This document shows, piece by piece, positions 7,384 to 58,978 of a stretch of 64,000 nt of DNA. The notes below the pieces were generated by a model, which did no database searches, was not told the origin of the DNA, and saw only the letters and a program-made list of their open reading frames with translations. Made by a program: the position numbers and the translations under genes. The stretch is from Candidatus Omnitrophota bacterium. Lineage in GTDB: Bacteria; Omnitrophota; Gorgyraeia; B26-G9. How positions within the stretch are numbered: position 1 is the first letter of the stretch; every line of letters starts with the position of its first letter. Where the stretch lies: NCBI GenBank assembly GCA_018817165.1, contig JAHITY010000118.1, forward strand, positions 6,526-70,525, read 5' to 3'.

Positions 7384-7416
7384 AAATTAGAGGACTAATT
7401 AGGAAGGTAAATTATT

Positions 7417-7635: not shown

Positions 7636-7726
7636 AGGATATAATCGCGCAATAAGTTTATTTGTGTTGGATGCGGTCAAATAATGACTTATTAATACTT
7701 TTTCGGTATAATAAGAAAGACGTGTT

Positions 7727-7880
7727 GACACTGGGCAAGGTTTAATGGGAACGAAGCCCGTATCGGTAAAGTTTAACGGTTTAGGCTAAAACAATAAATT
7801 TTAATACGGCAGACGTTACCGCAAGACGAAACGGGCATCGTAACCTTGACCGCAACATTTTAAAGTTGTAATTGTAAACA
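7727..7880 (+). repeat. Family B structured repeat, copy 1, between atpE and atpF
   Basis: gacactgggcaaggttta..acgaagcccgtatcggtaa..~60 nt..gacgttaccgcaagacgaaacgggcatcgtaacc. Outer stem gcccgt/acgggc, inner stem cggtaa/ttaccg. Confidence 0.8.
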
Positions 7881-7935
7881 GGCCTTTGTTAGAGTTTACA
7901 TAAAAAAACTGATTTGATAACCATAGGGGTGCTAA

Positions 7936-8670
7936 ATGATTATAGTTAGTTTTATCCTTTTACAGATTTTTATTTTTGGAGGACTTGCTTTTTTTCTCAA
8001 ACATTTGCTTACGAGAAATGTAACCAGCGCGACGTCTCATCTTCAGGGGATGATAAAGGAGAATACCGATAAACAAGAAGAAATGCAGAAGAAGATTGAA
8101 CAAGCGGAAAAAGAATACACGGCGAAGATTAAGAAAGCAAAAGATGAAGCAGAACAAATTGAGAAACAATGCCGCAAAGAAATAGAACAGGAAAGAGATA
8201 AAATTATCACTCAAGCACATGTCCAAAGTGAAGAACTGATGACGCGGGCTAAGAAAACTTGCGAAACTATTGTGGCTGAAATGAATAAAAATGTTAATGA
8301 TAAGGCAGTGGAACGCGCGGCTGAATTAATCTGCAAAGTTTTGCCGGAAAAAAATTGTCGAGATATTCATGAAGAATGGGTAAGGTCTTTAATTAATCAG
8401 GGGTTAAATAGTTTAGATCGGCTGCGGATACCGAATGATGTATCTCAGGTTGAAGTTATTACAGCTTTCGCTTTGACTGAACAGGAAAAAGCGGATTTAC
8501 ATAAACATCTTGTGGATCATTTGGATTTAGATTTATCAATTGAGGCAAATGTTCAGCCAGAAATTGTTGCGGGGATAATTATTAATATTGGAACATTAGT
8601 TCTTGACGGCAGCTTTGCAAATAAGATCAGGGAGGTAGTACATGAGTCATTCACCGGAACCGCAGAATAA
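7936..8670 (+). CDS. atpF: ATP synthase b subunit fused to a delta (OSCP)-like C-terminus (atpF-atpH fusion)
   Basis: An N-terminal TM helix is followed by a long charged coiled coil (b-like). The C-terminus PEIVAGIIINIGTLVLDGSFANKIREV matches the delta-subunit C-terminal motif. No separate atpH is present. Confidence 0.6.
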   Translation: MIIVSFILLQIFIFGGLAFFLKHLLTRNVTSATSHLQGMIKENTDKQEEMQKKIEQAEKEYTAKIKKAKDEAEQIEKQCRKEIEQERDKIITQAHVQSEELMTRAKKTCETIVAEMNKNVNDKAVERAAELICKVLPEKNCRDIHEEWVRSLINQGLNSLDRLRIPNDVSQVEVITAFALTEQEKADLHKHLVDHLDLDLSIEANVQPEIVAGIIINIGTLVLDGSFANKIREVVHESFTGTAE

Positions 8671-10135
8671 AACTCATGATATAAAGTTTGACGTAAAGGA
8701 AGTCGGACGGGTAAAGGCTGTGCGCGAGTTTATTGTTTTAGCGGAAGATATGCCTTCCTGTGTTAATGGTCAAATTGTTGAATTTGCCAATAACTTGCGT
8801 GGGATTGTGATGGGATTTACGCAGGATGAGGTGCAGATCCTGATGCTTGGGCCAAAAGCGCAAATCCGCGCTGGCGATAAAGTATATAGTAAAGCAAAAT
8901 CTCTGTATTTGCCTGTAGGAGATGGTTTTGTCGGGAGAGTTGTTAATGCTTTGTGTGAACCAGTTGATGGGCAAGGCGAAATTAAAACTGATGATATGTT
9001 TCCGGTATTCAAAGATGCTCCGGGAATTATGGAGCGTGATACTGTTGAACGGACTTTAGAATCCGGCACCAGGATTATTGACGCGATTATGCCATTGGCA
9101 CTTGGTCAAAGGCAGCTTTTAGTCGGCGATCGGCAAACCGGTAAATCCTCGGTAACAACTGACGCTATCATAAATCAAAAAGGAAAAGATGTTATCTGCA
9201 TCTATTGTGTTATTGGAAAAACTTATTCTGGATTAGTAAAAACAATTGAATTATTTAAAGAACATAAAGTTTTTGAGTACACGATGATTGTCAGCGGGAT
9301 TGCCTCAACTTCTGTTGGCGAACAATATTTAGCGCCGTATACAGCGGCAATGATCGGCGAATATTTTATGCAACAGGGCAAAGACGTTTTAGTTGTTTTT
9401 GATGATTTAACGCGACATGCCTGGATCTATCGTCAGATCTCATTGTTGTTAAAACGCGCTCCTGGCAGAGAAGCTTATCCCGGTGATATTTTTTATACCC
9501 ATTCGCAGCTTATGGAAAGAGCCGGGCAGATGAGCAAGGCTTTGGGTGGAGGATCAATGACTTTTCTGCCGATTGTGGAAACTTTACAAGGTGATGTGGC
9601 TGGTTTTATTCCGACTAATCTTGTTTCAATGACCGATGGACAAATTTATTTTAGTTCGGCTTTATTTAATAAAGGTTTTAGACCGGCAATTGATGTTGGA
9701 CTTTCAGTATCGCGTATTGGAAATAGAGCTCAGTGGCCAGCAGTAAAAGGGCCGAGCCGTAGTTTGCGGATGGAATTTTTACAATATAAAGAGTTAGTGG
9801 CAATGACGCAGTTAAGAACTACAGAATTATCAAAAGAAGCGGAAAAAAAGTTACGGCGAGGAGAAGCAATTACCGAACTATTGATTCAAGATAAAAATAA
9901 ACCGGTATCAATGGAGCATCAGGTAGTGGATATGTACGCGCTTAATCGAGAAGTATTAGATGAATTATCGGTTGAGCAAATTAGAAAATTTAAATTAGAT
10001 TTTTATGAAAAAATTAAAGAATGGTTTCCTAATTTCTCTACAAATCTAAGGGATACTAAAATTATTGTTGATGAAAGCATTGCTAATCTTGAAGAAGCGA
10101 TTTCTTTTTATTTTAATCAGGACCAAGAAAAGTAG
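8642..10135 (+). CDS. atpA: F1 ATP synthase alpha subunit
   Basis: P-loop GDRQTGKSS. Blocks such as PGREAYPGDIFYTHSQLMERAG and LSVSRIG match alpha throughout. Confidence 0.9.
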   Translation: MSHSPEPQNKTHDIKFDVKEVGRVKAVREFIVLAEDMPSCVNGQIVEFANNLRGIVMGFTQDEVQILMLGPKAQIRAGDKVYSKAKSLYLPVGDGFVGRVVNALCEPVDGQGEIKTDDMFPVFKDAPGIMERDTVERTLESGTRIIDAIMPLALGQRQLLVGDRQTGKSSVTTDAIINQKGKDVICIYCVIGKTYSGLVKTIELFKEHKVFEYTMIVSGIASTSVGEQYLAPYTAAMIGEYFMQQGKDVLVVFDDLTRHAWIYRQISLLLKRAPGREAYPGDIFYTHSQLMERAGQMSKALGGGSMTFLPIVETLQGDVAGFIPTNLVSMTDGQIYFSSALFNKGFRPAIDVGLSVSRIGNRAQWPAVKGPSRSLRMEFLQYKELVAMTQLRTTELSKEAEKKLRRGEAITELLIQDKNKPVSMEHQVVDMYALNREVLDELSVEQIRKFKLDFYEKIKEWFPNFSTNLRDTKIIVDESIANLEEAISFYFNQDQEK

Positions 10136-22788: not shown

Positions 22789-22825
22789 AATTTGTTAAAT
22801 ATTGAACATAAGGGGAGGATACATA

Positions 22826-24010
22826 ATGAATAAAATGACAGTGAAAGATATTGATTTAAAAGATAAGAAAATCCTTATGCGAGCTGATTTTAATGTTCCT
22901 TTGGATGAAAATTGCAATATTACTGATGATTTGCGGATTGTCTCGGCTTTACCGACAATTAAATATTGTCTAGAGCAAGGGGCGGCAAAAATTATTTTGA
23001 TCAGTCATTTAGGCCGGCCCAAGGGGCAGGTTGTGGCTAAGATGAGTTTAAAACCAGTTGCCGTAAGACTGGAAAAACTTCTGGGCATGCCAATTAAGAT
23101 GTTGGATGATTGTGTGGGCGAATCAGTTAAAAGGGCAATTAGTCAATCAAGTGAAAAAGTGGTTTTATTAGAAAATTTAAGGTTTTATGCTCAGGAAACG
23201 AAAAATGAGCCGGTTTTTGCTCAGCAGTTAGCGGAATTAGGTCAGGTTTTTGTTAATGATGCTTTTGGTACAGCGCATCGCGCTCATGCATCAACTGAGG
23301 GTGTTACGCATTATCTGCCGGCAGTTGCCGGGTTTCTCTTGGAAAAAGAAATGGCTTATTTGGGCAAGGTAGTAGAAAATCCGGAAAGACCATTAGTAAC
23401 AATTCTCGGCGGAGCAAAAGTTTCCGATAAAATTAAAATGATTGAAAATATGATGGATAAAGTGGATTGTTTTTTAATCGGCGGGGGCATGGCATATACT
23501 TTTTTAAAGGCACAAGGTAAAGAAATCGGCGACTCTAAATTGGAAGCAGATAAAGTTGATTTGGCTAAAACAATTTTAGAAAAAGCAAAAGAAAATAATG
23601 TTGATTTTGTTTTACCGATCGACCATAAAGTAGCTGATAAGTTTGATGCTCAAGCAGCGGTGCAATATGTTGGCGAAGAAATCCCGAAAGGTTGGATGGG
23701 TTTAGATATTGGTCCGAAAACCATAGAATTGTTTAAACAAAAACTGAAAACAGCTAAAACAATTGTCTGGAATGGTCCGGTTGGGGTTTTCGAAATGGAG
23801 GCTTTTTCCAAAGGCACAGAGGCCTTGGCGCGGTATATTGCAACATTGCCAGCAACCAGTATTATTGGTGGTGGTGATACGGCTAGCGCAGTGAGAAAAT
23901 TTGATGTTGTAAATAAAATGAGTCATGTTTCAACTGGCGGTGGAGCCAGTCTAGAGTTATTGGAAGGCTTGGAATTACCGGGAATTGCCGCTTTAAAAAA
24001 CAGAACATAA
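22826..24010 (+). CDS. pgk: Phosphoglycerate kinase
   Basis: Full-length match (RADFNVP, GGGMAYTFL and the rest). RBS AAGGGGAGGA. Confidence 0.9.
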   Translation: MNKMTVKDIDLKDKKILMRADFNVPLDENCNITDDLRIVSALPTIKYCLEQGAAKIILISHLGRPKGQVVAKMSLKPVAVRLEKLLGMPIKMLDDCVGESVKRAISQSSEKVVLLENLRFYAQETKNEPVFAQQLAELGQVFVNDAFGTAHRAHASTEGVTHYLPAVAGFLLEKEMAYLGKVVENPERPLVTILGGAKVSDKIKMIENMMDKVDCFLIGGGMAYTFLKAQGKEIGDSKLEADKVDLAKTILEKAKENNVDFVLPIDHKVADKFDAQAAVQYVGEEIPKGWMGLDIGPKTIELFKQKLKTAKTIVWNGPVGVFEMEAFSKGTEALARYIATLPATSIIGGGDTASAVRKFDVVNKMSHVSTGGGASLELLEGLELPGIAALKNRT

Positions 24011-24501: not shown

Positions 24502-24610
24502 TAATAATAATGATTCCGAAAGTGTCTGCTAGGCCGCAGCCATTTCGGACTAAATTCGCGCAGGTTGACTTGACGTCGTGAAGAACACTCCGTAAGTCAT
24601 GCGCTCATTT
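24502..24610 (+). repeat. Family A structured repeat, copy 3, in the tpiA 5' leader
   Basis: Shares ~105 nt with copies at 6472-6674, 42917-43023 and 47034-47134. It ends gcgctcattt directly before the AAGGAG RBS. Confidence 0.8.
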
Positions 24611-24622
24611 AAGGAGAATATA

Positions 24623-25387
24623 ATGCGTAAACCGATTATCGCTGGTAACTGGAAGATGAATAAAACAATAACTGAATCTTTGGATCTTGTCCGCCAACTT
24701 AGCATAGAATTGAAAGATGTTAAAGATGTCGATATACTGGTTTGTCCAGTATTTACAGCGCTGCATAGTGTTAGCCAGGCGGTTGACGGGTCTAATATAA
24801 AAATGGGAGCGCAGAATCTATTTTGGGAGGAAAAAGGGGCTTTTACCGGAGAAGTATCAGCTTTGATGTTAAAAGATACGCATTGCGAATATGTTATTCT
24901 TGGTCATTCGGAAAGACGAAGTATTTTTAAAGAAACTAATGAACATGTAAATAAAAAAATAAAAGCCGCGTTAAAAGCGGACTTATTACCTATTCTTTGT
25001 GTCGGAGAAAGACTTCAGGAACGCGAAGATGATAAGACTTATGATGTTATTACTGAACAAATCAAAGGTTCCTTAGCAGATATTAGCGCGGATGAACTGA
25101 AGAATATTATTATTGCCTATGAACCTGTTTGGGCAATTGGTACTGGAAAAGTTGCCAGTCCTGAACAAGCACAAGCCGTACATGCTTTTATCAGAAAACT
25201 TATATCTGATAATTTTGGTCAGGATACTGCCGAGAGTTTGCGGATTCAATACGGCGGGAGTGTAAAACCAGATAATATTAAAGTGTTGATTAATCAGCCT
25301 GACATTGATGGCGCTTTAGTTGGTGGAGCAAGTTTAAAAGCAGAAGATTTTATCCAATTAGTCTTAGCTTGTTCAATCCAGGATTAG
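24623..25387 (+). CDS. tpiA: Triosephosphate isomerase
   Basis: MRKPIIAGNWKMN start, and the catalytic motifs ILGHSERR and AYEPVWAIGTG. Confidence 0.9.
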   Translation: MRKPIIAGNWKMNKTITESLDLVRQLSIELKDVKDVDILVCPVFTALHSVSQAVDGSNIKMGAQNLFWEEKGAFTGEVSALMLKDTHCEYVILGHSERRSIFKETNEHVNKKIKAALKADLLPILCVGERLQEREDDKTYDVITEQIKGSLADISADELKNIIIAYEPVWAIGTGKVASPEQAQAVHAFIRKLISDNFGQDTAESLRIQYGGSVKPDNIKVLINQPDIDGALVGGASLKAEDFIQLVLACSIQD

Positions 25388-34007: not shown

Positions 34008-34707
34008 AAATATGAATAAAATATATGATAAGTTAGATAAAATAATTTGTTTTATTATGGCAGGATTATTTATTGTCAGCAGTTATTTATTTATAGGTAA
34101 TAGTTATAATTATAAAATATCTATGGAGCAGAAGAAAAATGCTTTAATTGTTGAAAATAAAAATGAGAATAATGATTTATTGCCAGAAGGTTTACTTTTA
34201 GACCCTGATCCTAAAGCAGCGATTGATTTGCTTGCAATAAAAAGAAATATTTTTGTTCCGTTTGAAGATGATGAGAAAAGGGTAACGTTTGATAATCCTG
34301 TCCTGGAATTATTGGATATATCATATAAACCGCTTGGTTTTCAATATCAAGGAAGAATTATTTATCCAAATGGCAAGATCGTAGCTCAAATTAATGCGAA
34401 TAATAAAAGTTATTTAGTTCAGCTGGGTGCAAAAGTGGGAGATTATAAAGTTACTCACCTGGATAAAAATTCAGTTGTCCTAAAAATGAAAAAAGGAGAA
34501 TCTTTGGATATAAAATATCTGCAACAAGGCTATAGTGATGAATTGATGGCAAAAATTAAAGACAATATTTCTGGAAAGATTGAAACAGTTTATAAAAATA
34601 GTGATATATTCGGCTATAAGGTGCTTGACATAGACAGAGATTTTGTGATATTGTCTAAGTTAGGTCAGCAGTTACGGTTACAGAAAGGAATGGTGCAAAC
34701 GAAATGA
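33997..34707 (+). CDS. pilP: PilP-like protein, membrane-anchored and beta-rich
   Basis: Lies immediately upstream of the secretin gene with a 4-nt overlap. N-terminal anchor and a beta-rich C-terminus. Confidence 0.3.
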   Translation: MRYENMNKIYDKLDKIICFIMAGLFIVSSYLFIGNSYNYKISMEQKKNALIVENKNENNDLLPEGLLLDPDPKAAIDLLAIKRNIFVPFEDDEKRVTFDNPVLELLDISYKPLGFQYQGRIIYPNGKIVAQINANNKSYLVQLGAKVGDYKVTHLDKNSVVLKMKKGESLDIKYLQQGYSDELMAKIKDNISGKIETVYKNSDIFGYKVLDIDRDFVILSKLGQQLRLQKGMVQTK

Positions 34708-36602
34708 AACGATTAATCTTCTTTTTACTTATAATATCTTTTTGCTTAAATATGGATTTAAATGTTTTTGCTCAGGATAGTGGCTTGTCTGATTTTGAAC
34801 AGGATCGGGCATTGGATTTAGCCAATCAAATTGCTCAGCAGAAAAATTCAAAGGCTACTGTAAATACAGCGAATTTAAGCCTTGGTTTGACAGATTTAAT
34901 TAACAAGGGATATGATGCTTGGGCAAATCTGGAATTTGAAAAAGCAAAAGCATATTTTAATGCAGCTTTGAGCTTGGAACCGAATAATTCGGAAATATCT
35001 GAAATTATTTATGGTTTAGAAAAAGCGCAATTAGAATATGAGCGAAGTCAGGTTAAAACAGAATTATCGCTTTTGCAGGGCAAAAGAATGCTTGATTCAG
35101 AAAAAGCTTGGTTGATTGAGCCTCCGAAGACAACAAGTTCCACTGGGCAAATAAAAAAACAATCAATTTCTTCTTTAAAAGAAAAGGCAATGACGAAAAA
35201 TGTAAGCATTGATTTTACTAATGCGCAGATTAGCAATGTGCTTGAATTTTTATCTGAGGTAAGCGGAATCAATATAATTATGGATCAGGCCGCAGTTGCT
35301 AGTGCCGGTAATATCGGCATACATCTTAAAAATGTAAGCTTGGTTCAGGCCTTAGAATCAATATTGCGTTCAAAAGGATTGGCTTATAGGTTTGAAAAGG
35401 ATTTTATTTGGGTTAGTTCCCAAGCGGATATTGCTAATGAGAGTTTAGTTATTCGGATATATAATCTTTCTCAGGGCTTAGCTAGTTTTACTTATTTTAC
35501 GACTTTTGATACTGTTACCATAAAAGGTGTGCGCCCCGATAGTAAAGTGATTTTAGGAGAAGAAGGTTTGGGTGTTGAGACTAATGAAGGAATAAAAATC
35601 GGCGGTCCAAGCGGAGTATCGGGTAAGGTTACTATGACAATTGAGGATGTTTTGAAACAAGTTGTTGATTGGCCTGAGGCAAGTAGGATATTTTTAGATA
35701 ATCGGACAAGTACGCTTATTGTGCGAAATACTCCGACTAATTTAGCAATTTTAGAGGAAGTTATACAAGCCCTTGATGTTAATCCTCCTCAGGTTATGAT
35801 TGAAGCAAGATTTGTCGAAATCGGGGAAGATGATTTATACTCTTTGGGTCTTAAAATGAATACTGAGATTAGTGGGCAGGGAGCAGCAGCTCCAACATCA
35901 TTTCCGTTTAATAAAAATAATAATGGAAAATTCGCTTCGACGTTTCCTGCACCAGCTACTACTGACTTTAACTACGGTAAACTAGATTTTTCCCAGTTTC
36001 AGGCAGTTATTTCGGCCATAGAACAGAATACTAATAGCAATACACTTTCTTCCCCGAAAATCACTACGATTAGCGGGCAGGAAGCAGTAATAAAAATAGT
36101 AAAAGAATATAGATATCCTACAAAATATGAAATCGAAGTACTAAAAGTAGAAGATGCTGATGGTAATACAGTTACGCAATCATTTCCTGTTCCAGTTGAA
36201 TTTACAACTCGCGATATTGGGATAATTTTAAAGGTTACGCCAAATGTCGGAGCTGATGAGAAAACAATTAATATGACTGTTATTCCCGAGGTCAGTGAAT
36301 TTGATGTAACTAAAGATTTTTTTAATTATGGAACTGATGAAAGACCGTTTTTGCAGCCTTTCTTTAATACGCGAAATGCAACAGCCAGTATAATTGTAAA
36401 TAATAATGAAACAGTGGTAATGGGCGGTCTTATGCGGGAAACTGTAGAACAAGGAGTTGACCGTATTCCGGTTCTGGGCAGTATTCCTTTGCTTGGCAAT
36501 TTATTCAGCCGCAAGGTAGATAATAAGCAGAAAAGAAATTTGTTGATTTTTGTTACTGCTCGAATAATCAGTCCAACAGGACAGACAGTAGTTAAAAAGT
36601 AG
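34704..36602 (+). CDS. pilQ: PilQ/GspD-family outer-membrane secretin
   Basis: Signal peptide, N0/secretin_N-like domains, and the C-terminal secretin signature VVMGGLMRE...IPVLGSIPLLGNLFS...NLLIFVTARII. Confidence 0.85.
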   Translation: MKRLIFFLLIISFCLNMDLNVFAQDSGLSDFEQDRALDLANQIAQQKNSKATVNTANLSLGLTDLINKGYDAWANLEFEKAKAYFNAALSLEPNNSEISEIIYGLEKAQLEYERSQVKTELSLLQGKRMLDSEKAWLIEPPKTTSSTGQIKKQSISSLKEKAMTKNVSIDFTNAQISNVLEFLSEVSGINIIMDQAAVASAGNIGIHLKNVSLVQALESILRSKGLAYRFEKDFIWVSSQADIANESLVIRIYNLSQGLASFTYFTTFDTVTIKGVRPDSKVILGEEGLGVETNEGIKIGGPSGVSGKVTMTIEDVLKQVVDWPEASRIFLDNRTSTLIVRNTPTNLAILEEVIQALDVNPPQVMIEARFVEIGEDDLYSLGLKMNTEISGQGAAAPTSFPFNKNNNGKFASTFPAPATTDFNYGKLDFSQFQAVISAIEQNTNSNTLSSPKITTISGQEAVIKIVKEYRYPTKYEIEVLKVEDADGNTVTQSFPVPVEFTTRDIGIILKVTPNVGADEKTINMTVIPEVSEFDVTKDFFNYGTDERPFLQPFFNTRNATASIIVNNNETVVMGGLMRETVEQGVDRIPVLGSIPLLGNLFSRKVDNKQKRNLLIFVTARIISPTGQTVVKK

Positions 36603-47244: not shown

Positions 47245-47511
47245 GTGGCTGTTATTATTCGTTTATCGAGACTAGGAACAAAAGGAAAACCGCATCATAA
47301 GATTGTGGTTATAGACCAACATAGACCGAGAGATGGACGTTTTATTGAAGAAATTGGTTATTATAATGCTTCGATTAAACCAACATTGATGGAAGTTAAA
47401 GCTGATCGTGCTTTATATTGGATGAGTGTTGGAGCAAAACCAACTGGAACTGTAAAAAGAATATTTAAAAATAAAAAAATTCCTTTAAATGCTAAAAAGG
47501 AGACAAAATAG
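47245..47511 (+). CDS. rpsP: Ribosomal protein S16 (GTG start)
   Basis: MAVIIRLSRLGTKGKPHHKIVV. Confidence 0.85.
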   Translation: MAVIIRLSRLGTKGKPHHKIVVIDQHRPRDGRFIEEIGYYNASIKPTLMEVKADRALYWMSVGAKPTGTVKRIFKNKKIPLNAKKETK

Positions 47512-47816
47512 TGAAGCGTGCTATTTTATTTGTTTTTGTTTTATTTATGGTTTCTACTGTTTCTGGGTGTAAGACTTTTAATCAGTTTAGTAATCAGAAC
47601 AGAGATAGTGCGGCATTAAAAGGGGAAGAGTTAAACCTTGATAGTGATCAGGCCTATCTGTTGAGTACATGGTATCATAATGCAGTTTTATCTGAAGATG
47701 TGGGTGATTATAATGCAGCAATTATGTATTATGCGAAAATCGTTGAATATTTTCCGGAAACTGAAAAAGGCAGAATGGCCAACAAAAGGCTTAATGTGCT
47801 GAATAGAGCACATTAA
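47511..47816 (+). CDS. Small lipoprotein with a TPR-like helical region, in the position usually occupied by rimM/KH-domain genes
   Basis: Lipobox-like signal with a Cys (VSGCK), 101 aa. Confidence 0.4.
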   Translation: MKRAILFVFVLFMVSTVSGCKTFNQFSNQNRDSAALKGEELNLDSDQAYLLSTWYHNAVLSEDVGDYNAAIMYYAKIVEYFPETEKGRMANKRLNVLNRAH

Positions 47817-49650: not shown

Positions 49651-52600
49651 ATGCTTATAGGGAAAAAGTTTAAAATTATCAGAAAGACACTGGCATTATT
49701 TTGCCTGTGGGGTTTTCTTGGCCTAAACAATGCACTGGCCTTTAGCTTGCTGGATTATCCTAATCCGGATAATTTTTTGAGTCCGCAGCTGAACATTTCC
49801 ATTCCGCTTTTCATCGATGATTATCAAAAAGTTACAAAAGCTCCGCGTTGGCTTAGACCGGATATCGTGGGTTTATTTGGCGGCACCGGAGGTAATATTG
49901 CCGGCAATGTTTTAAGTTTTAGTGATTTAAATCAGTTTTTAACGGAAAAATTATTTGTCAGTTTTATTATCTCACCGCATGATGATGGCGGTTCTTCGGT
50001 TATTCTGCAGAGAATGTTATCTGAATATCTCGGGTATACGCTTTCTCCCGGTGACACAAACAATATATTCGCCGGGCTGACGAGTTATTTTAAAAAGCGG
50101 GTTCTTAGAACGCGTTTTGAAGAGAAGATCTCAGGAACGCTTTTACGTGATCAGTTAGAGAAAATTATCAGCAATACTGAAGCACTGGCTAAGCCAAGGC
50201 CTTTATTTATAGATGAACAAGAAGAAAAAACAGTGAGCAAGATAACGATCGAAGGTATTGACTATCCTGTGAGTTTTGACGCAAAGAATAACCGGTTTAT
50301 TTTTGATCAGGATAAAGAAGCCGGGATTAATCAGAAGCTAATATTTGGTAAGGAGCAATTTATAATCAAGCAATATGCGGGGAAAACAAAATTGTGTTTT
50401 ATCCCTGATGAGAATGATTCAGAAGCCTTAACTTCTGACTTAAAAACGGATTCCAACTGGGTAGAGTTTAAACAGCAAATCTTGGAACTTGCCCGGAGTT
50501 TTGATCAGGAGTTTATAAACCCGAAAATCAAAACTTTACCGGGAAAGGTTATTGATATCTCTTCTGGAAGCATGGGGAATTTTTTAATTGCCGCTAAGAT
50601 GATTCAAACCGGGGCTTATGATCCTAAAAGAAAAGATAAAATAGATCAGGATAAATATCACCAGGGGATTCAGGAATTGTGTGAAATGCTGGATATTGAT
50701 AATGGCTTTGTCAGCTGTTCGACTTTTGATCCGGCAACTTTGTATGCAAAACTTGCTTCAATTGCTATTGAAAAAGATGATAAAGCTTTATTGCTGGATG
50801 GAAATAATGAACAAGCGCTAAAAGAAAACGGGATTATAATCGATAAAATGGATCGGAGCAATGGGGTATTTGACATTTATTATGCTGGTTTGGAAAATAA
50901 TAAGCGTACCAAGTTTGGTTTAAAAATTCGGGAATATATTGAAGGCTATGTATATAGAAATAAACTCGGACGGGAAGACAGCTATTCAGAAGTGAGTCTG
51001 CCTTTAGATGTTTTAGAACGATATCCGGTTACGCTCAGCCATAATCGGCTTAGTTTGAATCTAAAGATCACGAATCAGAAAATAGTTGGGCTAGAATATG
51101 TAAAAAAAAAGGAAACTGTAAAAATTGATCAAGAGCAATTAGCGGAGTTTGAATCAGACGGACAGATTATTTTTGCTTTGCCGAAAGAGATTAGTTCGGC
51201 TTCAGAGGAATCAATCCGCAGCTTACCACGATTTTATATTGATGCAAAGTCAGGGAGCTTAAATATAGTTCTCGATACTAAGGGAATAGGCGTTGGGTTT
51301 TTAATAAATGGAGTGGAGTTAAAAATAAAAGGCCGCTTGGTTATTGAGCAGACAAATATAACCGAGGGTTTGCATCACAGCGGAATTGTTGATTTTGGTT
51401 TTTTAAATAATGTTAAGCCGCGGGTTAACAAGCATAGCCTTTTAGCAATTGCCAATGCTCCTTTGTTCATGATGGGGCCAGGCAGTCAGTATACAAGTTT
51501 AATGTCGTTGTTGCTTATTCCGGAAGTAGTCGTAGCTTTAAAACAAAGGGTTGCCAGCGGTAAAGAGAGTTTATTTATTTTTAATCCCTTAAGAGACAAT
51601 GAAACAGTGGATAGTCAAAGCGTAAGGGATATTATTAGAGCTGTTGAAAAGGTAACAGATGTGAGATTCGGGGAAATATTTAATTATGCGGTAGTGAGTG
51701 ACAGCGAAGGGTTGCAGGAAGATTTTGCCAAAGCTGAAGATGCTTTTAGGGGAGCATCATCTCCGGATTATATAGCGGCAAAACAATTATATGAAAAGTA
51801 TTCTAAGATGTACGGCTTAATGGATGAGATGAAAAATAAAAAATTATCAAATGCGAGAGAAGCATCGAGTTTTTCCAAGCTGGCAAAATACTCAAGAGGC
51901 CTTATTAGTTTTGATGAAAATGATTTAGACGCGCTGATAGACCAAGGTGTGGAAGTTTATAAAACAAAAGTTATTTTAAGCTCTCGGGAAGTTCGCAAAA
52001 AAGGAAAGGCCGAGAAGGAGGAGTCGATCAGATATGATAATGCGCAGATCGCGAATATTATTGATCAAATACTCTGGAGCCGGGGAGCTTTGTTTAAACA
52101 GGATGAAAAATTAGCCAGGCTCAGGCAGAAGCTTATTGACGAAAATTTTGATAGATATCCCGAGGGACTTTACGAAGCAATCAACCGGATAAGAAAGGAA
52201 GGGCTTTTAGGATCAAAAAGCCCCGCGGCTGCCGCACGCTATATCTTTGAACGCTTACAAAAAGAGGATTTTGCTTTATCTGATCAGCAGAGCAGAGCAT
52301 TATTAGATAAGAAGGTAATCATCACAAATCTCAAGCATACGCTTTGTGAGAAAGACGGAATTACGCCAAAAATAAAAAAAGAGTTAGAGGTGTTTTTAAG
52401 GAACAATGGTAAATTGATCGTTATCAGCGGTTTTGAAGTTCAAGAAATGAAGCAAAGGCTGCTTGATTCTCTGGATAAGAATTTATGGAGTTCAATTATT
52501 TTAGTAGCTAATTATGGAACAGAGGCATGGTACTGGGACCAGCAGCAGTCAAAATTAATGAACTTATTTAATTTTCACAAGGAAGCGGCGCTTAAAGATA

Positions 52601-53280
52601 CTCAAATAGCTAAATGGCAGCAAGTAGTGGATAATACTCTGCGGGAATATGCTTTGGATAGACCGCTTAGAGTTAAAGGCCAAGACGTGGATCAAACTAT
52701 TGCGAAAGTAGAAGATCGGGCAACGATGATTGCTTTGCGCTTGAGATCGCGAGCTTTTTTGAGCAGTTTAAATGCTATTAGCGAGGTAAACAAGCGCTTA
52801 AAAGAACAAGATCTGCCTCAGGTCAAAGCTGATGGGATTTTACGTACTCCGATGCTTGAGCGTTTAAATAATATGTTTGCCAAATATGATCTGCCGATAA
52901 GCGCTGTTTTGGGTGGAACCGGGACGATTAATACAATGGTTGAAAAAGCGGCGAATAAGGGCGATGTGATTCAGCGGGTATTATCGGCGGCAATAGATAA
53001 GGGCCTGCTGTTAAGAGAAAACCTTGAGCAAATCCTGATAATGGGTAAGGGCAATTATGAAATAGCCGAAAGGCTGCATGTGCCTTGGCTGGTGTTCCAG
53101 GTCCCGCGTCAATCCACTGAGCATACGATTGAATTTAAGAAAGGATATGGGGTTGGAGGTGCTGAGATATTTTTAGAAATTCTTAATTCGGTACAGGGGG
53201 CTTTGAATTCCTCAAAAATAGATGGTAAAAGCCGGAAGGATATCCAGGATAATGCGATGTTTATTGATCAGGCTATATAG
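49651..53280 (+). CDS. Large (1209 aa) signal-anchored protein with a highly expanded CofD/YvcK (UPF0052)-like domain and a ~580-aa C-terminal extension of unknown function
   Basis: Hydrophobic N-terminus, then the ordered family motifs GLFGGTGGN, HDDGGSSV...PGDTNN, SGSMGNFL and GPGSQYTSLMSLLLIPE, separated by insertions of ~190 and ~290 aa. Confidence 0.55.
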   Translation: MLIGKKFKIIRKTLALFCLWGFLGLNNALAFSLLDYPNPDNFLSPQLNISIPLFIDDYQKVTKAPRWLRPDIVGLFGGTGGNIAGNVLSFSDLNQFLTEKLFVSFIISPHDDGGSSVILQRMLSEYLGYTLSPGDTNNIFAGLTSYFKKRVLRTRFEEKISGTLLRDQLEKIISNTEALAKPRPLFIDEQEEKTVSKITIEGIDYPVSFDAKNNRFIFDQDKEAGINQKLIFGKEQFIIKQYAGKTKLCFIPDENDSEALTSDLKTDSNWVEFKQQILELARSFDQEFINPKIKTLPGKVIDISSGSMGNFLIAAKMIQTGAYDPKRKDKIDQDKYHQGIQELCEMLDIDNGFVSCSTFDPATLYAKLASIAIEKDDKALLLDGNNEQALKENGIIIDKMDRSNGVFDIYYAGLENNKRTKFGLKIREYIEGYVYRNKLGREDSYSEVSLPLDVLERYPVTLSHNRLSLNLKITNQKIVGLEYVKKKETVKIDQEQLAEFESDGQIIFALPKEISSASEESIRSLPRFYIDAKSGSLNIVLDTKGIGVGFLINGVELKIKGRLVIEQTNITEGLHHSGIVDFGFLNNVKPRVNKHSLLAIANAPLFMMGPGSQYTSLMSLLLIPEVVVALKQRVASGKESLFIFNPLRDNETVDSQSVRDIIRAVEKVTDVRFGEIFNYAVVSDSEGLQEDFAKAEDAFRGASSPDYIAAKQLYEKYSKMYGLMDEMKNKKLSNAREASSFSKLAKYSRGLISFDENDLDALIDQGVEVYKTKVILSSREVRKKGKAEKEESIRYDNAQIANIIDQILWSRGALFKQDEKLARLRQKLIDENFDRYPEGLYEAINRIRKEGLLGSKSPAAAARYIFERLQKEDFALSDQQSRALLDKKVIITNLKHTLCEKDGITPKIKKELEVFLRNNGKLIVISGFEVQEMKQRLLDSLDKNLWSSIILVANYGTEAWYWDQQQSKLMNLFNFHKEAALKDTQIAKWQQVVDNTLREYALDRPLRVKGQDVDQTIAKVEDRATMIALRLRSRAFLSSLNAISEVNKRLKEQDLPQVKADGILRTPMLERLNNMFAKYDLPISAVLGGTGTINTMVEKAANKGDVIQRVLSAAIDKGLLLRENLEQILIMGKGNYEIAERLHVPWLVFQVPRQSTEHTIEFKKGYGVGGAEIFLEILNSVQGALNSSKIDGKSRKDIQDNAMFIDQAI

Positions 53281-53428: not shown

Positions 53429-56221
53429 ATGAAGTTGCAAAAAAACAATCTTAAAAGAAAATTTTTTTATATAATAAATTTACTTATTATCCAGGTATTT
53501 TTATTATATAATTTGGCTTTTGCGGAAAGTTTAAAAGCTGAAAGCAATTTTCTTAGCCCTTCTTTGCAGATCGGTGTTCCTAATTTTCTCACTGTTTTTG
53601 ACAGGTATAATCAGAATAATACTGACAATATAGATAGTTATTCTCTGTTTGAGCAAAAGAAATTACAAGCAGGACTGATTAAAAAAATAATCTCTGAAAT
53701 TGAGAAAAGTGATAAATTTACATCTGCTGATTTAGAAATAGTAAAAAAATTCATAAAAATCGCAGAATCTAATTATGGAGAATCAACCTTTTCCTCTGAG
53801 CCGAATGAATACTATTTTAATCATGTGCTTGAGGTTACTGAAATTCTGCTCAGACCAGATCTAAAGTTGAATCCTTCTATGGATACTGTTTGTGCTGGGC
53901 TATTGCATCGGATGCCTGATACCCGTATTTGGCAGTCATTAATGGCAGCCGGAATAGAAGATGTTTTAATTGATGAGATAGTGAGTCTTAAAAATAAATT
54001 TTTAAATCTTACAGATTTTTCTTATACAAAGATGAATTTAAAAAAAGATAGACATACTCTTAATAATTTTATGAATAATATTATACAGCAATCTGAAGAT
54101 GATTTGGGTCAAGCTGCTCCCAATATTATAAAGCTTGTCTTGGCGGATAAGCTTGCCTCAATAAGATTTGCGTCAGAAGTAGACAGGGATACCCTTGTAA
54201 AAGATATAGCTGATGTTTATGCTCCTTTGGCACATCGGATTGGGGCACAAAAATTAAAGGATAAACTTTATAATGAATCATTTCGCTTGGCGCGCCCTGC
54301 AGAATATAAACAAACTTTAAAACTGGTTGAGGCTTTTCTCGGCAAAGATTATTTTGAATTAGATGCTGATTTGCAGGTGCTGGAAGAAAAATTAAAGAGA
54401 TTTATTAAGGATAACTTTAGAGTTGATTTTACAATCGATGTTATGGTAAGGGTTAAGGGCTTGTATGAAATTTATGAAAAATTCCGCGATAGAGAAAGTT
54501 TAAATGATGTTTTGGGTATAAGAATAATATGTGATTGTTCTGCAGCAGAGCTATATCAATTTTCAGATGTAGTCCAGCAGATTGTAGGTACTTGGGATCC
54601 TAAATTGTATGACCAGAAATTTGAGAATGGACTGCAGAGCGGGATGATATTTGTAGATGTAGGCTCTGTTGATAGCTATGATGGTAATCCTTATGAAGTA
54701 CAAATATTAAACAGACAAAGTCATGAAAAAAGAGAAAGAGAATTCCCGCATTGGTCTTATAAATTAGCACAGCGGACAGGTCAAGTATTTGATACGGAAG
54801 AATATGTTCCGATTGGTGATTTTGATGATGATTTTAAGCGTGTATTTGATGGATTAAAAGATAGCGTATTTCCGATTGCTTTGGGTGCGAATGGGGAGCT
54901 TGAAATAAAGCGTTTGGCTGCTGGGTCTGTGCCTGCTGATTTGGCTGCCGCACGCTTGGTAAACCGTTTAAATGAGGATTATAAAGGGGCTAAGGTTAGT
55001 CAATGGAAAAATGGATTGTTACTTAATACACAAGATGTAGCCATGGATTATCAAATAAAGTCTAAGGATATAGTCGAAATTGTAAGCGCTCAAGGGTACT
55101 TAAAAAATGATATTAATAAAAGAACAAATTTAAGGAAAAGCGTTAAAGGATTCAGAACTCAGTTATTGCTTGCTTTAATGGATTTAGGCGTAAGTCCTGA
55201 TTCTTCAAAGATAACATCTGGAGAAATAAGGCTTAAAGAACAATTTGATTTAAGGGGCATAAAGATTACCAGTAAGGTTGTTGAGGAATTTCTAACTCCA
55301 TTTGCTATAAGTCTGGGTTTAGCAGATGTAAAAGAGCTTTATCTGGCACTGACATATTATAATCAACAAGTGAGTGTTGGCGAAGTCATTGAAGCGGCCA
55401 AAGAATCAGGGATTAAAATCATCAAAGATAATTTTTCTGCAGATGACTTTATGTTAGGACAGATTGCTAAGAAAGGGTCACTGGAAGAATTTTTTGTTAG
55501 GGTTGGAGCAGGAGAGATAACGATAAAAGATATCAAGGCAAAAATAAAAGATTTAAAGAATGGCATTAAAACTGATATTAAAAATGTCCGTTTTGATAAA
55601 GAATATAAATTTAAGCTGACTATTCCCAGGCACACAAAGAGAAGCTCTAAGGAACGGCTTAATCAACAAATGATTACAACAAGAGTAAAAAATATTAATG
55701 AGATCATAAAATCTCTTGGTTTGGAAGTTGTTGGTGGAGAAGTGAAAAGTCCGGTATCAAAAGGCAATGGTTCGATTAAAATCCAGTTTTCTGTGCTGCA
55801 TGATGATATCTTTCAAATAAATGAATTAGTCAAAAAATTTAAAAATTCTCAAAAGGTGAAGATTGATACCATTGGATTTAATGAAACTGTAGGAAGGAAG
55901 TTTGTAGTTGAGTTCTTTAATCAAGGCCAGAAACTTACGAGTTTGATTGAATATCTTGAAAATATAATATCTCAGGAAAGCAACAGCACTCAGACTATAG
56001 AGCTTGATGTTAAGAAACAGCCGCTTGATCAAGTTAAGGATGGGATTATTGAAATAACAACCACACTTCCTTCGGGACTTGATAAAAAAGCGATTACTAC
56101 GATTCTAGAAAGGATAGAAAAAGATAGAATAGCACATCAGGCAACTAGAAATGGACTTGGTCCTCAAGCCCAAAAAAAACATATCCCTGAGCTTATGAGA
56201 ATGCTCCAATTTTCAATATAA
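53429..56221 (+). CDS. Long RelA/SpoT homolog. It has a degenerate (HD to HR) hydrolase domain, a (p)ppGpp synthetase domain, a TGS domain, and an unusual N-terminal signal-anchor plus a ~120-aa leader.
   Basis: LLHRMPDT replaces HD. LVLADKLASIRF and VYAPLAHRIGAQKLKDKLYNESFRL match the hydrolase-domain helices. The synthetase motifs RVKGLYEIYEKF, DVLGIRII and EVQILNRQSHEKREREFPHWSYK are present. A TGS-like segment runs FPIALGANGELEIKRLAAGSVPADLAAARL...GAKV. Confidence 0.8.
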   Translation: MKLQKNNLKRKFFYIINLLIIQVFLLYNLAFAESLKAESNFLSPSLQIGVPNFLTVFDRYNQNNTDNIDSYSLFEQKKLQAGLIKKIISEIEKSDKFTSADLEIVKKFIKIAESNYGESTFSSEPNEYYFNHVLEVTEILLRPDLKLNPSMDTVCAGLLHRMPDTRIWQSLMAAGIEDVLIDEIVSLKNKFLNLTDFSYTKMNLKKDRHTLNNFMNNIIQQSEDDLGQAAPNIIKLVLADKLASIRFASEVDRDTLVKDIADVYAPLAHRIGAQKLKDKLYNESFRLARPAEYKQTLKLVEAFLGKDYFELDADLQVLEEKLKRFIKDNFRVDFTIDVMVRVKGLYEIYEKFRDRESLNDVLGIRIICDCSAAELYQFSDVVQQIVGTWDPKLYDQKFENGLQSGMIFVDVGSVDSYDGNPYEVQILNRQSHEKREREFPHWSYKLAQRTGQVFDTEEYVPIGDFDDDFKRVFDGLKDSVFPIALGANGELEIKRLAAGSVPADLAAARLVNRLNEDYKGAKVSQWKNGLLLNTQDVAMDYQIKSKDIVEIVSAQGYLKNDINKRTNLRKSVKGFRTQLLLALMDLGVSPDSSKITSGEIRLKEQFDLRGIKITSKVVEEFLTPFAISLGLADVKELYLALTYYNQQVSVGEVIEAAKESGIKIIKDNFSADDFMLGQIAKKGSLEEFFVRVGAGEITIKDIKAKIKDLKNGIKTDIKNVRFDKEYKFKLTIPRHTKRSSKERLNQQMITTRVKNINEIIKSLGLEVVGGEVKSPVSKGNGSIKIQFSVLHDDIFQINELVKKFKNSQKVKIDTIGFNETVGRKFVVEFFNQGQKLTSLIEYLENIISQESNSTQTIELDVKKQPLDQVKDGIIEITTTLPSGLDKKAITTILERIEKDRIAHQATRNGLGPQAQKKHIPELMRMLQFSI

Positions 56222-56263: not shown

Positions 56264-56668
56264 ATGGAAAATATAAAAACCTCTTGGCCGCAAGAAAAGG
56301 CGCTTAAACATCATAAAATTGCCTCTATCCTTATAATCATTAGCGCTATTTCTGGATTATACTTATGTCTTGATGATATTATAATTTTGGGTAATAATTT
56401 AAGCGCTTTTGTTTTTCCTTATTTATTTAATTATTTTGGCTTGTTCCTGTCATTATTTCAACTATATACGGCAATTTGTTTTCTGAACAAACAAGCCTGG
56501 GCTAGCAAAGCTATTTTATGGATTTTTTTAATCAGACTGCTTATGGGATATTATGATTTAATCGAGGTTGTCCCGGTTGTTCTTGTTCTGCCGTATTTAC
56601 TATTTATTCTTTCGGGAAAAAGATTAAATAGTTTGTTTGAAAAAAGTGCTAGTGACGTAAGTGCTTAA
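56264..56668 (+). CDS. Small polytopic membrane protein (3-4 TM helices), hypothetical
   Basis: 134 aa, hydrophobic helices, directly downstream of the RelA/SpoT-homolog gene. Confidence 0.4.
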   Translation: MENIKTSWPQEKALKHHKIASILIIISAISGLYLCLDDIIILGNNLSAFVFPYLFNYFGLFLSLFQLYTAICFLNKQAWASKAILWIFLIRLLMGYYDLIEVVPVVLVLPYLLFILSGKRLNSLFEKSASDVSA

Positions 56669-57418: not shown

Positions 57419-58978
57419 ATGAGTACTTTAAATATTATAATTGGGGTATCTAGTGGGATTGTCTTCTTTTTGGCTGGGTATCTTTTTCGCCGGTTTGGAG
57501 CGGAGAAAAAAGTACAAAGTGCGGAAAACAAGGCAAAACTTATTTTAGAAGAGGCGGATAAACAGGTAGAAGCAAAAAAGAAAGAAGCAAGTTTGGAAGC
57601 AAAAGACTTGCTGTATAAGACCAGAATAGAATTTGAAAAAGAATCAAAAAATAGACGCCAAGAATTACTGACTATTGAAAGACGGCTAATCAGTCGTGAA
57701 GAAAATCTGGATAGAAAAGTCGATCTTCTTGAGAAAAAAGAGCAGGATTTAAGTACGAAATATAAAAATCTGGAAACAAAAGAACAAGAAAACAAAGAGA
57801 AAGAAGATGAACTGAAAAGTCTTGTTTTAGAAGAAAAAGACCGTCTTCAGAAAGTTTCCGGATTAACCAGTGATGAGGCAAAAAAAATCTTGCTCAAGCA
57901 CATGGAAGGTGAAGTCAGATATGATGCGAATCTGATGATTAAAAGAATCGAAGATGAATCAAAAGACATTGCTGCTAAGAAAGCAAAGCAGATCATTAGT
58001 TTAGCTATTCAGCGTTGTGCTGCTGAGCATACAGTCGAATCAACCGTCAGTGTGGTTAGTTTGCCTAGTGATGATATGAAGGGCAGAATTATCGGTAGAG
58101 AGGGCCGTAATATCAGATCTTTAGAAGTGGCTACGGGAGTGGATGTGATTATTGATGATACTCCTGAGGCTGTTACCTTATCAGGATTTGATCCGATTCG
58201 CAGGGAAATAGCGCGCTTATCTCTTGAGCGCCTGATTGCCAACGGCAGAATCCATCCGGCTAGAATAGAAGAAGTCGTGGAAAAAGTAAAAAAAGAAATG
58301 GATGTTACTATCAAGGAAGAAGGTGAAAAAGCTTCTTTTGATGTAGGGGTTCAAAGAATTCATCCGGAAATAGTAAGACTCCTTGGTCGTTTGAAATACC
58401 GAACAAGTTATGGGCAAAATGTATTACAACATGCTAAAGAAGTGGCTTATATTATGGGGCTACTTGCAGGACAGCTTGACCTTGATGTTACGCTGGCTAA
58501 GAGAATAGGATTATTGCATGATATTGGTAAAGCTGTGGACCATGATCAGGAAGGAACGCATGCTGGTTTAGGAGCAGATCTAGCTAGAAAATATGGAGAA
58601 AATCAGGAAGTAGTAAACGCGATCGCGGCGCATCATGATGATAGTGAGTCTAATTCTGTTTATGGAATTTTGGTTCAAGCTGCAGATGCAATCAGTGCGA
58701 CAAGGCCAGGAGCTCGCCGGGAAACATTGGAAATTTATATTAAACGCTTAGAGAAGTTAGAAGCTATTGCGGATTCTTTTAAAGGTGTTGACCGGGCATT
58801 TGCAATTCAGGCTGGTAGGGAAATCAGAGTTATTGTTCATCCCGATAAGGTTGGAGATGCTGAATCAGCAATAATGGCACGTGAGATTACTAAAAGAATT
58901 GAAAATGAATTAGAGTATCCAGGACAGGTAAAAGTAACTGTTATCCGGGAAAAACGAGTTGTTGAATACGCAAAATAA
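57419..58978 (+). CDS. rny: Ribonuclease Y
   Basis: N-terminal TM helix, coiled coil, KH domain and HD domain (LLHDIGKAVDHD), 519 aa. Confidence 0.85.
   Translation: MSTLNIIIGVSSGIVFFLAGYLFRRFGAEKKVQSAENKAKLILEEADKQVEAKKKEASLEAKDLLYKTRIEFEKESKNRRQELLTIERRLISREENLDRKVDLLEKKEQDLSTKYKNLETKEQENKEKEDELKSLVLEEKDRLQKVSGLTSDEAKKILLKHMEGEVRYDANLMIKRIEDESKDIAAKKAKQIISLAIQRCAAEHTVESTVSVVSLPSDDMKGRIIGREGRNIRSLEVATGVDVIIDDTPEAVTLSGFDPIRREIARLSLERLIANGRIHPARIEEVVEKVKKEMDVTIKEEGEKASFDVGVQRIHPEIVRLLGRLKYRTSYGQNVLQHAKEVAYIMGLLAGQLDLDVTLAKRIGLLHDIGKAVDHDQEGTHAGLGADLARKYGENQEVVNAIAAHHDDSESNSVYGILVQAADAISATRPGARRETLEIYIKRLEKLEAIADSFKGVDRAFAIQAGREIRVIVHPDKVGDAESAIMAREITKRIENELEYPGQVKVTVIREKRVVEYAK

Follow-up and report, generated by a model that had tools for sequence, protein, structure and literature searches.

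Why should two neighbouring genes for unrelated enzymes begin with the same peptide? The question arises from a 64,000-nucleotide stretch of DNA (here called the window) that forms part of a 105.7-kb contig (JAHITY010000118.1) in a 'Candidatus Omnitrophica' metagenome-assembled genome (MAG). Two large genes follow one another there on the forward strand: gene A (49651-53280), whose open reading frame (ORF) of 1209 amino acids (aa) matches the Pfam family PF01933 and is CofD/YvcK-like, and gene B (53429-56221), whose ORF of 930 aa is identified by Pfam as a long RelA/SpoT homologue (RSH). An initial annotation of this DNA had reported that one motif follows the hydrophobic N-terminal segment of both proteins. 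When the coordinates were re-translated, both peptides read exactly as quoted: NFLSPQLNISIPLFIDDY at residues 41-58 of A (49771-49824, forward strand) and NFLSPSLQIGVPNFLTVF at residues 40-57 of B (53546-53599, forward strand, inside the reported interval 53429-53610), each recovered by regular expression and by hidden Markov model (HMM). The finding is real, and its best explanation, judged from sequence, is that the motif forms the core of a clade-specific, two-ended targeting tag lying outside the catalytic fold of either enzyme. Both genes carry both halves of this tag. The annotation had captured the N-terminal half correctly; it had missed the C-terminal half, the tandem arrays in which tagged genes occur, and the conflict between the type of cargo and the type of signal.

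The motif starts 7-10 residues past a hydrophobic segment that ends in ALA in A and AFA in B, and which a Kyte-Doolittle scan found to be the sole hydrophobic segment of each protein. The signal-peptide-like part reads MLIGKKFKIIRKTLALFCLWGFLGLNNALA in A (49651-49740, forward strand) and MKLQKNNLKRKFFYIINLLIIQVFLLYNLAFA in B (53429-53524, forward strand; with an I-Q core), and both have alanine at positions -3 and -1. The core NFLSP.L.I..P.F is shared as first described; the tail '...Y.Q' appended to it is not, because the tyrosines that were lined up stand at different spacings in A and B, and the true tail is F-x3-[Y/F]. The catalytic domains behind the motif are indeed unrelated, as shown by their Pfam matches and by the alignment of residues 101-555 of B with Bacillus subtilis Rel (6yxa), and BLASTP found nothing in common between A and B beyond the first ~55 residues. 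Taken alone, the similarity within that region is marginal: 17/40 residues are identical, and E is 1e-4 when 100 aa of each protein are compared and 0.007 when the whole proteins are. This modest pairwise significance would fit two ordinary signal peptides that resemble each other by chance. A leave-family-out HMM built from 27 modules of other families, however, gave B 46.3 bits and A 36.5 bits, against 6.9 bits for the next best of the 296 ORFs in the window. Chance also leaves unexplained the conservation of the motif in orthologues and its perfect coupling to a C-terminal hexapeptide, both described below; contradicted already by the HMM scores and by this coupling, it can be treated as a negligible prospect. 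A motif HMM of the kind that the initial annotation had proposed, reduced to 21 columns, gave 19.2 and 16.6 bits for the two window genes and 5.3 bits for the next best ORF, and a loose regular expression for the motif matched no other six-frame ORF of the window.

One may postulate instead that a recent partial duplication or gene conversion between A and B left a similarity without function. The two genes are adjacent, A separates rnhB from the RSH gene in one sub-clade only (the window and locus L002; L003 and L004 lack it), and the window motifs are closer to each other than that of B is to those of its orthologues. Nevertheless, module and tail persist in distant orthologues of both families. 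P0122 (from locus L001) and P0123 (encoded in L002), the orthologues of A with 54-57% identity to it, read NYLSPQLNI..VF and NYLSPQLVI..LF. Those of B (P0002-P0006 and the RSH gene of L002, at 6194-9223; 31-35% identity to B) have a signal-peptide-like start followed by [Q/E]-[T/N]-L-S-P-x-Φ-x-Φ-x4-F-x3-[Y/I], where Φ is a hydrophobic residue, as in QTLSPSVHLGTRPFLEVY, ETLSPAMRFDAQSFLDIY, QTLSPALHIPLNSFLESY and ENLSPKINLSYPGFTDLI. A recent partial duplication without conservation in orthologues, or absence from homologues in related genomes, had been named at the outset as contrary to a shared module; the module is retained at 31-57% identity. The conserved residues are, moreover, written with different codons in A and B (TTG/CTT, AGT/AGC and CCG/CCT), and across the orthologues leucine appears as TTG, CTT, CTA, CTC or TTA, serine as AGT, AGC or TCT, and proline as CCG, CCT or CCA, with switches between the AGY and TCN serine codons among the synonymous changes. 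This synonymous turnover, together with conservation in orthologues, indicates that selection acts on the peptide, and it excludes a recent A/B duplication or a DNA repeat. In other genomes, the module and tail also accompany 32 more passenger clusters that are unrelated to these. With codons, orthologues and other passengers all contradicting it, an origin in local gene history is scarcely credible.

The second half of the tag first became apparent as invariant final residues in the alignments of A and B with their orthologues. Translation shows that A ends in FIDQAI-COOH (53260-53277, forward strand, with the stop codon at 53278-53280) and B in MLQFSI-COOH (56201-56218, forward strand, stop codon at 56219-56221); orthologues of A finish GIGQAI and IEPAI, and those of B finish AIKFSI, AINSSI, VNSSI, AISSSI, LINSAI and LIETAI. 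The consensus is Φ-I-x-Q-[A/S]-I-COOH, and all 38 of 38 complete C-termini end in [A/S]-[I/V/L]. The terminal residue (position 0) is isoleucine in 35 of these, valine in two and leucine in one; position -1 is alanine in 24 and serine in 14; glutamine occupies -2 in 26/38, isoleucine -4 in 28/38, and leucine, alanine or phenylalanine -5 in 27/38. Conservation is limited to the last six residues, preceded by variable, linker-like sequence. Because the proteins had been picked by their N-termini only, the C-terminal motif is an independent confirmation of the set. In the 162 kb that comprise the window and five further loci, exactly nine ORFs match the N-module HMM (21-70 bits, next best 8), and among real genes these nine and no others have the hexapeptide ending; the three remaining matches are antisense ORFs. 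The fixed extreme C-terminal position, the small residue at -1 and the hydrophobic residue at 0 imply recognition of a free end.

We then asked how widely the module occurs. The two window N-termini by themselves gave no matches when used as the profile in a word-indexed search, whereas a profile of nine N-termini, compared exhaustively and with no word index to 1.84 billion representative proteins at E ≤ 1e-3, found 37 proteins of 64-2087 aa, nearly all with one match at residues 1-70. Together with the fetched loci this gave 49 tagged proteins, and once module and tail were removed their passengers fell into 34 clusters without mutual BLAST similarity. The Pfam families among them include MutS_V; B12-binding with Radical_SAM; GAF with HD_5 (HD-GYP-type); FBPase_glpX; PGM_PMM; glycosyltransferases of family 2 (GT2) and of a TreT-like family 1 (GT1) type; PEMT with a class I methyltransferase, and several other methyltransferases; Pkinase; an ARMT1-like phosphatase; cNMP_binding; and TPR repeats. 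Many tagged proteins have no Pfam match. Every member with a source name belongs to Candidatus Omnitrophota/Omnitrophica. A back-translated DNA pattern (T-L-[S/A]-P-x-Φ-x-I-x4-F-Q-x2-Y; ~34 bits, with roughly 80 chance matches expected, and recovering about one module in six) matched 48 places in 185,579 species represented by one genome each; eight of these lay in six Omnitrophota MAGs and were all true modules, and none of the other 40 was. A stricter pattern gave five matches in a metagenome collection, four of them true modules. By our extrapolation, the tag would be confined to a small clade within the phylum, whose genomes may carry about ten tagged genes each.

The initial proposal of a portable module that gives unrelated enzymes a shared localisation or route is thus borne out by the 34 passenger clusters, the conservation in orthologues and the paired C-terminal motif. 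Short, flexible-looking terminal motifs under strong purifying selection, strict coupling of the two ends and unrelated cargo are the signature of a targeting or docking tag, and we consider it quite probable, on these sequence grounds, that the module and tail are a shared targeting tag read by common machinery. The bipartite tag is apparently undescribed: we did not find it in Pfam, NCBIfam, the Protein Data Bank (PDB) or the literature. Searches of the N-module against the three databases gave best E-values of 0.07, 0.04 and 0.04, respectively, all to unrelated hydrophobic or repeat proteins, and our literature searches found no paper with the C-terminal motif and none describing an Omnitrophota sorting signal or Omnitrophota ppGpp.

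Two members of the search results deserve separate mention. P0152, a 64-aa fragment found by the profile search, is high in alanine and arginine and contains two tandem copies of ...LDSNxLSPAMNVAASIFLARFQ but does not begin like a signal peptide; we read it as a fortuitous hit or else as an LSP-type motif put to an unrelated use outside Omnitrophota. One tagged family has HExxH between transmembrane (TM) segments (AHESIHA in P0134 and EHENIHA in L051, 2-4261), which suggests that it may be a membrane metalloprotease-like member; the L051 protein also carries a cNMP-binding domain, and P0134, which lacks the C-terminal hexapeptide, may be truncated.

Tagged genes are separate ORFs, each behind a stop codon, and they commonly stand head to tail: four in L011/L054, three in L051 and two each in L021, L023, L050 and L056, with A and B forming such an array in the window. 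Spacers range from an overlap to 148 bp. These arrays of two to four genes raise the possibility that a tail and the next N-module together mark a unit boundary, either a DNA repeat or cassette site or the seam of giant polyproteins. The giant 'multi-enzyme' proteins published for Omnitrophota contain a TM helix roughly every 1000 aa, and they share Pfam families with the tagged set (GT1, PGM/PMM, radical SAM, methyltransferase and HD). A DNA-level element is at odds with the variable spacers and the synonymous codon variation, and we rejected a repeat or cassette site on both counts. The polyprotein seam was rejected likewise: no profile match exceeds 2087 aa, nearly every protein has a single match and it is N-terminal, all 12 of 12 true pattern matches start an ORF just after an upstream stop codon, and the species genomes yielded only the eight true motif matches, where a module every ~1000 aa should give far more. 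Overall, we consider a unit boundary very unlikely.

Alignment of 36 modules shows how the N-terminal half is built. It is one homologous unit of ~60 residues that begins with two to five lysines or arginines (K5, K6, K8, R11 and K12 in A; K2, K5, K9, R10 and K11 in B). A 19-residue stretch without insertions or deletions follows, consisting of K/R (34/36), a 13-residue hydrophobic core centred on I/V-[Q/W] (34/36 and 33/36), N/D/Q (28/36) and then Φ-small-[W/F/L/Y]-A. Position -3 is A, S, V or C in 35 of the 36 modules, and position -1 is alanine in 33 and glycine or threonine in three. A variable linker of 5-25 residues separates this A-x-A site from the motif, [T/Y/F]-L-[S/A]-P-x-Φ-x-[I/L/M/F]-x4-F-x3-[Y/F], in which L, S/A and P are present in 36/36, the next two specified positions in 35 each, F in 32 and the final Y/F in 34. 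The K, Q/W and N/D of the hydrophobic stretch, at i, i+8 and i+14, fall on one helix face.

Compared with known signals, this module has three sequence features of a general secretory (Sec) signal peptide cleaved by signal peptidase I: a charged n-region, an h-region of 7-15 residues and small residues at -3 and -1. It does not resemble a lipoprotein signal, as the +1 residue is F31 in A and E33 in B, and cysteine stands at +1 in one module of 36 (P0131, 'SWAC'); some modules from the loci, outside the 36-module alignment, have a cysteine near the site in a non-lipobox context. None of the n-regions has the RR of a twin-arginine translocation (Tat) signal. The type IV prepilin signal (G / F/M-T-L-x-E, PF07963) matches neither A, B nor the 27 modules, although it does match the pseudopilins of the window. 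At the other end, there is no C-terminal hydrophobic segment and no basic tail as in LPXTG, PEP-CTERM or GlyGly-CTERM proteins; the C-terminal regions have no Pfam match and only their last six residues are conserved, in contrast to the C-terminal domain (CTD) of type IX secretion system (T9SS) substrates; and the terminal residue is not aromatic, as it would be in an outer-membrane-protein (OMP) β-signal or a DegS PDZ ligand.

The logic of the tag is nevertheless familiar. LPXTG/sortase, PEP-CTERM/exosortase, GlyGly-CTERM/rhombosortase and the T9SS CTD share its bipartite design, in which many unrelated proteins of one lineage, with several paralogues per genome, carry the same label. The tail described here differs from theirs in being six residues with a free carboxylate, lacking a TM helix, a basic tail or a domain of ~80 aa; the tag also has an additional N-terminal motif, and its cargo is cytoplasm-type in place of the surface proteins of LPXTG-type systems. 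Among signals in which a sequence in or after the signal peptide directs later sorting are CsgA N22, the ESPR of type V substrates and YSIRK-G/S; the module has no sequence similarity to these, and they serve one protein class where it serves dozens. Carboxylate-dependent tails include the YxF of DegS/OMP, substrates of Prc/Tsp, the PTS1 -SKL bound by the TPR protein Pex5, and ssrA -LAA. The hexapeptide resembles these in its fixed place at the extreme C-terminus, with a small residue at -1 and a hydrophobic one at 0, but its consensus matches none of them; the window contains no tmRNA gene with which the tag could be compared.

The route that we favour, tentatively and at a little short of an even chance, is Sec export with onward sorting. 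The N-terminal stretch would engage the signal recognition particle (SRP) and Sec at the cytoplasmic membrane, and signal peptidase I would cut after the A-x-A site, predicted to be A30 in A and A32 in B. After the cut, the LSP motif would lie close to the new N-terminus, with the free carboxylate tail at the far end of the protein, and a single dedicated receptor or sorting device could then recognise both short linear motifs, for example by β-strand capture of the N-motif and a PDZ- or TPR-like carboxylate pocket for the tail. This route accords with the n-h-c layout, in which essentially every module obeys the -3/-1 rule, and with the N-terminal charge layout, which predicts that the N-terminus stays inside and the passenger is moved outside (N-in/C-out). 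RNase Y, encoded nearby (57419-58978), shows the opposite charge layout, as expected for an anchor with its N-terminus outside (N-out). Because the cargo needs ATP or GTP, S-adenosylmethionine (SAM), UDP-sugars or Fe-S clusters, the final site would be a nucleotide-containing place beyond the producer's periplasm; as the phylum is host-dependent or predatory, the most plausible such place may be the host or prey cell. Omnitrophota are described as host-dependent or predatory and as having conserved loci that resemble type II secretion systems (T2SS) and type IV pili (T4P) (bioRxiv 10.1101/2023.11.21.568195; 10.64898/2026.06.07.730766); a locus of this type lies upstream of A and B. Alarmone synthetases exported with a Sec signal exist (PMC12691689). 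Under this reading both window proteins would be exported, B as a long alarmone synthetase and A as a sugar-nucleotide-binding protein. We regard the full statement, comprising tag, export route and destination, as evenly poised between right and wrong.

Export must be interpreted cautiously, however, as a number of observations weigh against it. The cargo is almost entirely of cytoplasmic type, and motifs such as the radical-SAM CxxxCxxC of P0132 and the HD-GYP motifs of P0135 are intact. The RSH gene stands in a stable housekeeping synteny (rnhB-RSH-4-TM protein-ygfA-rny-ymdB) in four genomes. In five of five multi-TM tagged proteins, the 15 residues just upstream of the first internal TM segment carry a charge of +3 to +5, the 33-residue loop behind the second TM segment of P0142 carries +8, and a very arginine-rich stretch follows the second TM segment of P0134; by the positive-inside rule, positive flanks of internal TM segments place the side of the N-motif in the cytoplasm. 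On our reading of its sequence, the PEMT domain of P0143 would be inverted under export relative to the generally known topology of such domains. Cysteine counts have no even-number bias (16 even, 17 odd) and thus no disulfide signature. With its fixed length and polar stripe, the hydrophobic stretch resembles a helix that is kept and specifically packed more than a signal peptide that is discarded. The surroundings of the arrays revealed no candidate receptor gene, and an AlphaFold2 model of B built from six sequences (pLDDT 48.5, with both termini below 50) is uninformative on the termini and on contacts of the two motifs with each other or with the fold.

An alternative scenario that could account for many of these points is a tether at the cytoplasmic face, in which an uncleaved helix keeps the enzymes on the inner membrane face or within a complex of membrane proteins. 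The LSP motif and the tail would then be cytoplasmic short linear motifs for a common scaffold, or the tail would be recognised by proteolysis, as a degron of the sort that FtsH-, Clp- or Tsp-like recognition of non-polar C-termini would provide; the outcome would be a membrane-proximal, co-regulated set of signalling and sugar-metabolism enzymes. Such a tether would suit the cytoplasmic cofactors that the cargo families need, the charge patterns of the multi-TM members, the fixed-length helix with its conserved polar stripe, the place of B in conserved synteny with a long-RSH architecture that includes a TGS region, and the absence of a cysteine-parity signal. It is harder to square with lysine and arginine before the hydrophobic core and neutral or acidic residues after it, a layout that predicts translocation of the passenger, and with RNase Y, which shows in the same window what a normal N-out anchor looks like. 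In addition, the core is too hydrophobic, with too few polar residues, for an in-plane anchor (Kyte-Doolittle 1.6-2.8 over 19 residues), and the near-invariant small residues at -3 and -1 would have no obvious role in an uncleaved anchor. We consider the tether possible, though rather doubtful.

Export and onward sorting, if correct, invite a further comparison. PEXEL in Plasmodium and RxLR in oomycetes are short motifs that follow a signal peptide, mark a large set of unrelated proteins and belong to organisms living on other cells. The likeness is one of analogy and not homology: here too a motif starts 5-25 residues past the A-x-A site and precedes 34 passenger clusters. PEXEL and RxLR differ in using eukaryotic secretory pathways, in sequence and in having no C-terminal partner motif. 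The tag could be a bacterial counterpart that sends 30 or more cytoplasm-type enzyme families into the cytoplasm of a host or prey cell, an idea that we think unlikely as it stands. The repertoire would comprise the long RSH, CofD-like, Ser/Thr-kinase-like and HD-GYP proteins, glycosyl- and methyltransferases, radical SAM enzymes, FBPase and PGM/PMM, and a dedicated conduit, possibly the phylum's unusual T2SS-like or SecA-domain machinery, would deliver it. Delivery to a host would reconcile the signal-peptide-like start with the cofactor needs of the cargo and with the 'cytoplasm-side' charges, which would refer to the recipient cell.

Short terminal address labels sort proteins, and the recognition of new ones has led to new machines (sortases, exosortases, the T9SS and PTEX). 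This one can be identified from sequence alone by its ~60-residue N-module and terminal hexapeptide, and it yields a concrete cargo list for a host-dependent phylum that is uncultivated and about whose cell biology very little has been learnt. The list presents a paradox, in that enzymes dependent on ATP, GTP, SAM, UDP-sugars or Fe-S clusters stand behind an apparent secretion signal. If they are exported, they would constitute an Omnitrophota effector repertoire that includes a long RSH, and we know of no earlier long RSH behind an export-type signal; if they are retained, they would form an unusual membrane assembly of signalling and sugar-metabolism enzymes. In either case the tag is a search key for its missing partner through phylogenetic profiling. 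We rate it as a variant of the lineage-specific protein-sorting tags, with cargo surprising enough that a categorically new delivery system is conceivable.

The two passengers in the window are themselves divergent, both scoring far under NCBIfam cut-offs. B has the domain order of a long RSH of the Rel/RelA/SpoT type, with HD_4 at residues 122-272, RelA_SpoT at 341-446 and TGS at 494-552, the last a weak match (E = 0.004) under the Pfam cut-off. It departs from that type in two places. The His-Asp dyad of the hydrolase is replaced by His-Arg (L159-H160-R161; nucleotides 53903-53911) in all seven family members, LHR being invariant in the six sequences B and P0002-P0006 and the L002 copy likewise having HR; judged by this replacement, the hydrolase of B is dead. 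In the synthetase region (54449-54766), EXQIRT reads EVQILN in B, with R-T replaced by L-N, EVQI[M/L]T or EAQILT in P0002-P0006, and LEIQFLT in the L002 copy. Of the other positions in the synthetase motifs (R-x-K-x..Y, D..G-x-R-I, E-x-Q-I-R-T and H-x-x-Y-K), R341, K343, D360, G363, R365, E423, Q425 and H441-K445 are invariant in B and P0002-P0006. With synthetase motifs largely kept, B has by sequence a RelA-like 'synthetase-only' pattern. The exported alarmone synthetases (EAS) surveyed by Ahmad et al. 2025 (PMC12691689) are small enzymes of the Apk1/SAS-like kind, and the survey that described them left out long multidomain RSH. Like them, B has a synthetase domain behind a Sec-type-like signal; it is not a small SAS-type synthetase, however, and differs in its 930-aa architecture of dead HD, SYNTH and TGS and in its extra N- and C-terminal motifs.

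A is, by its sequence, a divergent CofD/YvcK-like protein with a large insert. PF01933 covers only the C-terminal half, at residues 560-694 of A (52.6 bits; cut-off 30), and the NCBIfam model TIGR01826 scores 47 against a cut-off of 196. A shares with YvcK/CofD proteins, besides PF01933, a GGTGGN loop (residues 77-82, nucleotides 49879-49896) and a DDGGSS loop, and differs from them in an insert of ~420 residues that splits the CofD-like fold (50100-51330) and in an extra C-terminal part of ~500 aa (51751-53277). The latter has no Pfam match and no PDB sequence match; its sole NCBIfam match is weak and far sub-threshold, to a DivIVA-repeat model (E = 0.013). Within it, VIITNLKHTL seems, to our eye, to resemble a degenerate haloacid dehalogenase (HAD) motif I.

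The synteny around B extends upstream through murA, rpsP, trmD and rplS to rnhB in the window, L002, L003 and L004; in L001, A follows rnhB without an RSH gene. The 4-TM protein, of 129-134 aa with about four hydrophobic segments, is encoded at 56264-56668 in the window, 9270-9659 in L002, 13240-13644 in L003 and 12943-13341 in L004, always directly downstream of the tagged RSH gene, and a joint HMM scores these proteins at 203-227 bits; the window copy, when scanned, had no Pfam match. We rejected it as a common partner of the tag, since it occurs only beside RSH genes and not at other tagged loci, and it is possibly an RSH-specific membrane partner. In three MAGs a tagged gene or array lies just upstream of a lexA-like gene (L005, 12284-14313; L023, 3291-5537; L050, 1479-2078), followed in L005 and L023 by a dinB/IMS polymerase gene, and this position may be conserved for tagged genes. 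A scan for promoters and terminators around A and B gave results at chance level.

Upstream of A and B, two T2SS/T4P-like gene sets occupy 12975-36602, with nothing that ties them to the tag. They comprise three GspE/PilB-type ATPases and a PilT-like one, two GspF proteins, PilM-PilN fusions, PilO and a secretin (34704-36602), and no PDZ-bearing GspC or other obvious receptor was seen in them. Two glycolytic genes, pgk (22802-24010) and tpiA (24599-25387), stand among them with pseudopilin genes on either side. The window opens (1-6464; ORF listed as 24-6464; 1-8529 in L059) inside a called gene of at least 4358 aa, which begins near the contig end and of whose product the C-terminal 2146 residues are encoded here; its domains are Ig-like Kre9/KNH, reelin-subrepeat and GldM-like. 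Downstream of this giant ORF come an F-type ATPase operon and then a GspE-PilZ fusion, a free PilZ, GspF and GspG/J/K-like genes; this resembles the arrangement that West-Roberts et al. described in Omnitrophota, where a T2SS-like locus and PilZ genes adjoin the gene for a very long protein. A small lipoprotein-like ORF (MKRAILFVFVLFMVSTVSGC...; 47511-47816) lies between rpsP and trmD, a position at which L003 and L004 have small genes (109 aa and 105 aa) without a Pfam match. All convincing genes of the window are on the forward strand, the few reverse-strand ORFs overlapping them and looking spurious, and GC skew is positive in every 2-kb interval (0.11-0.28).

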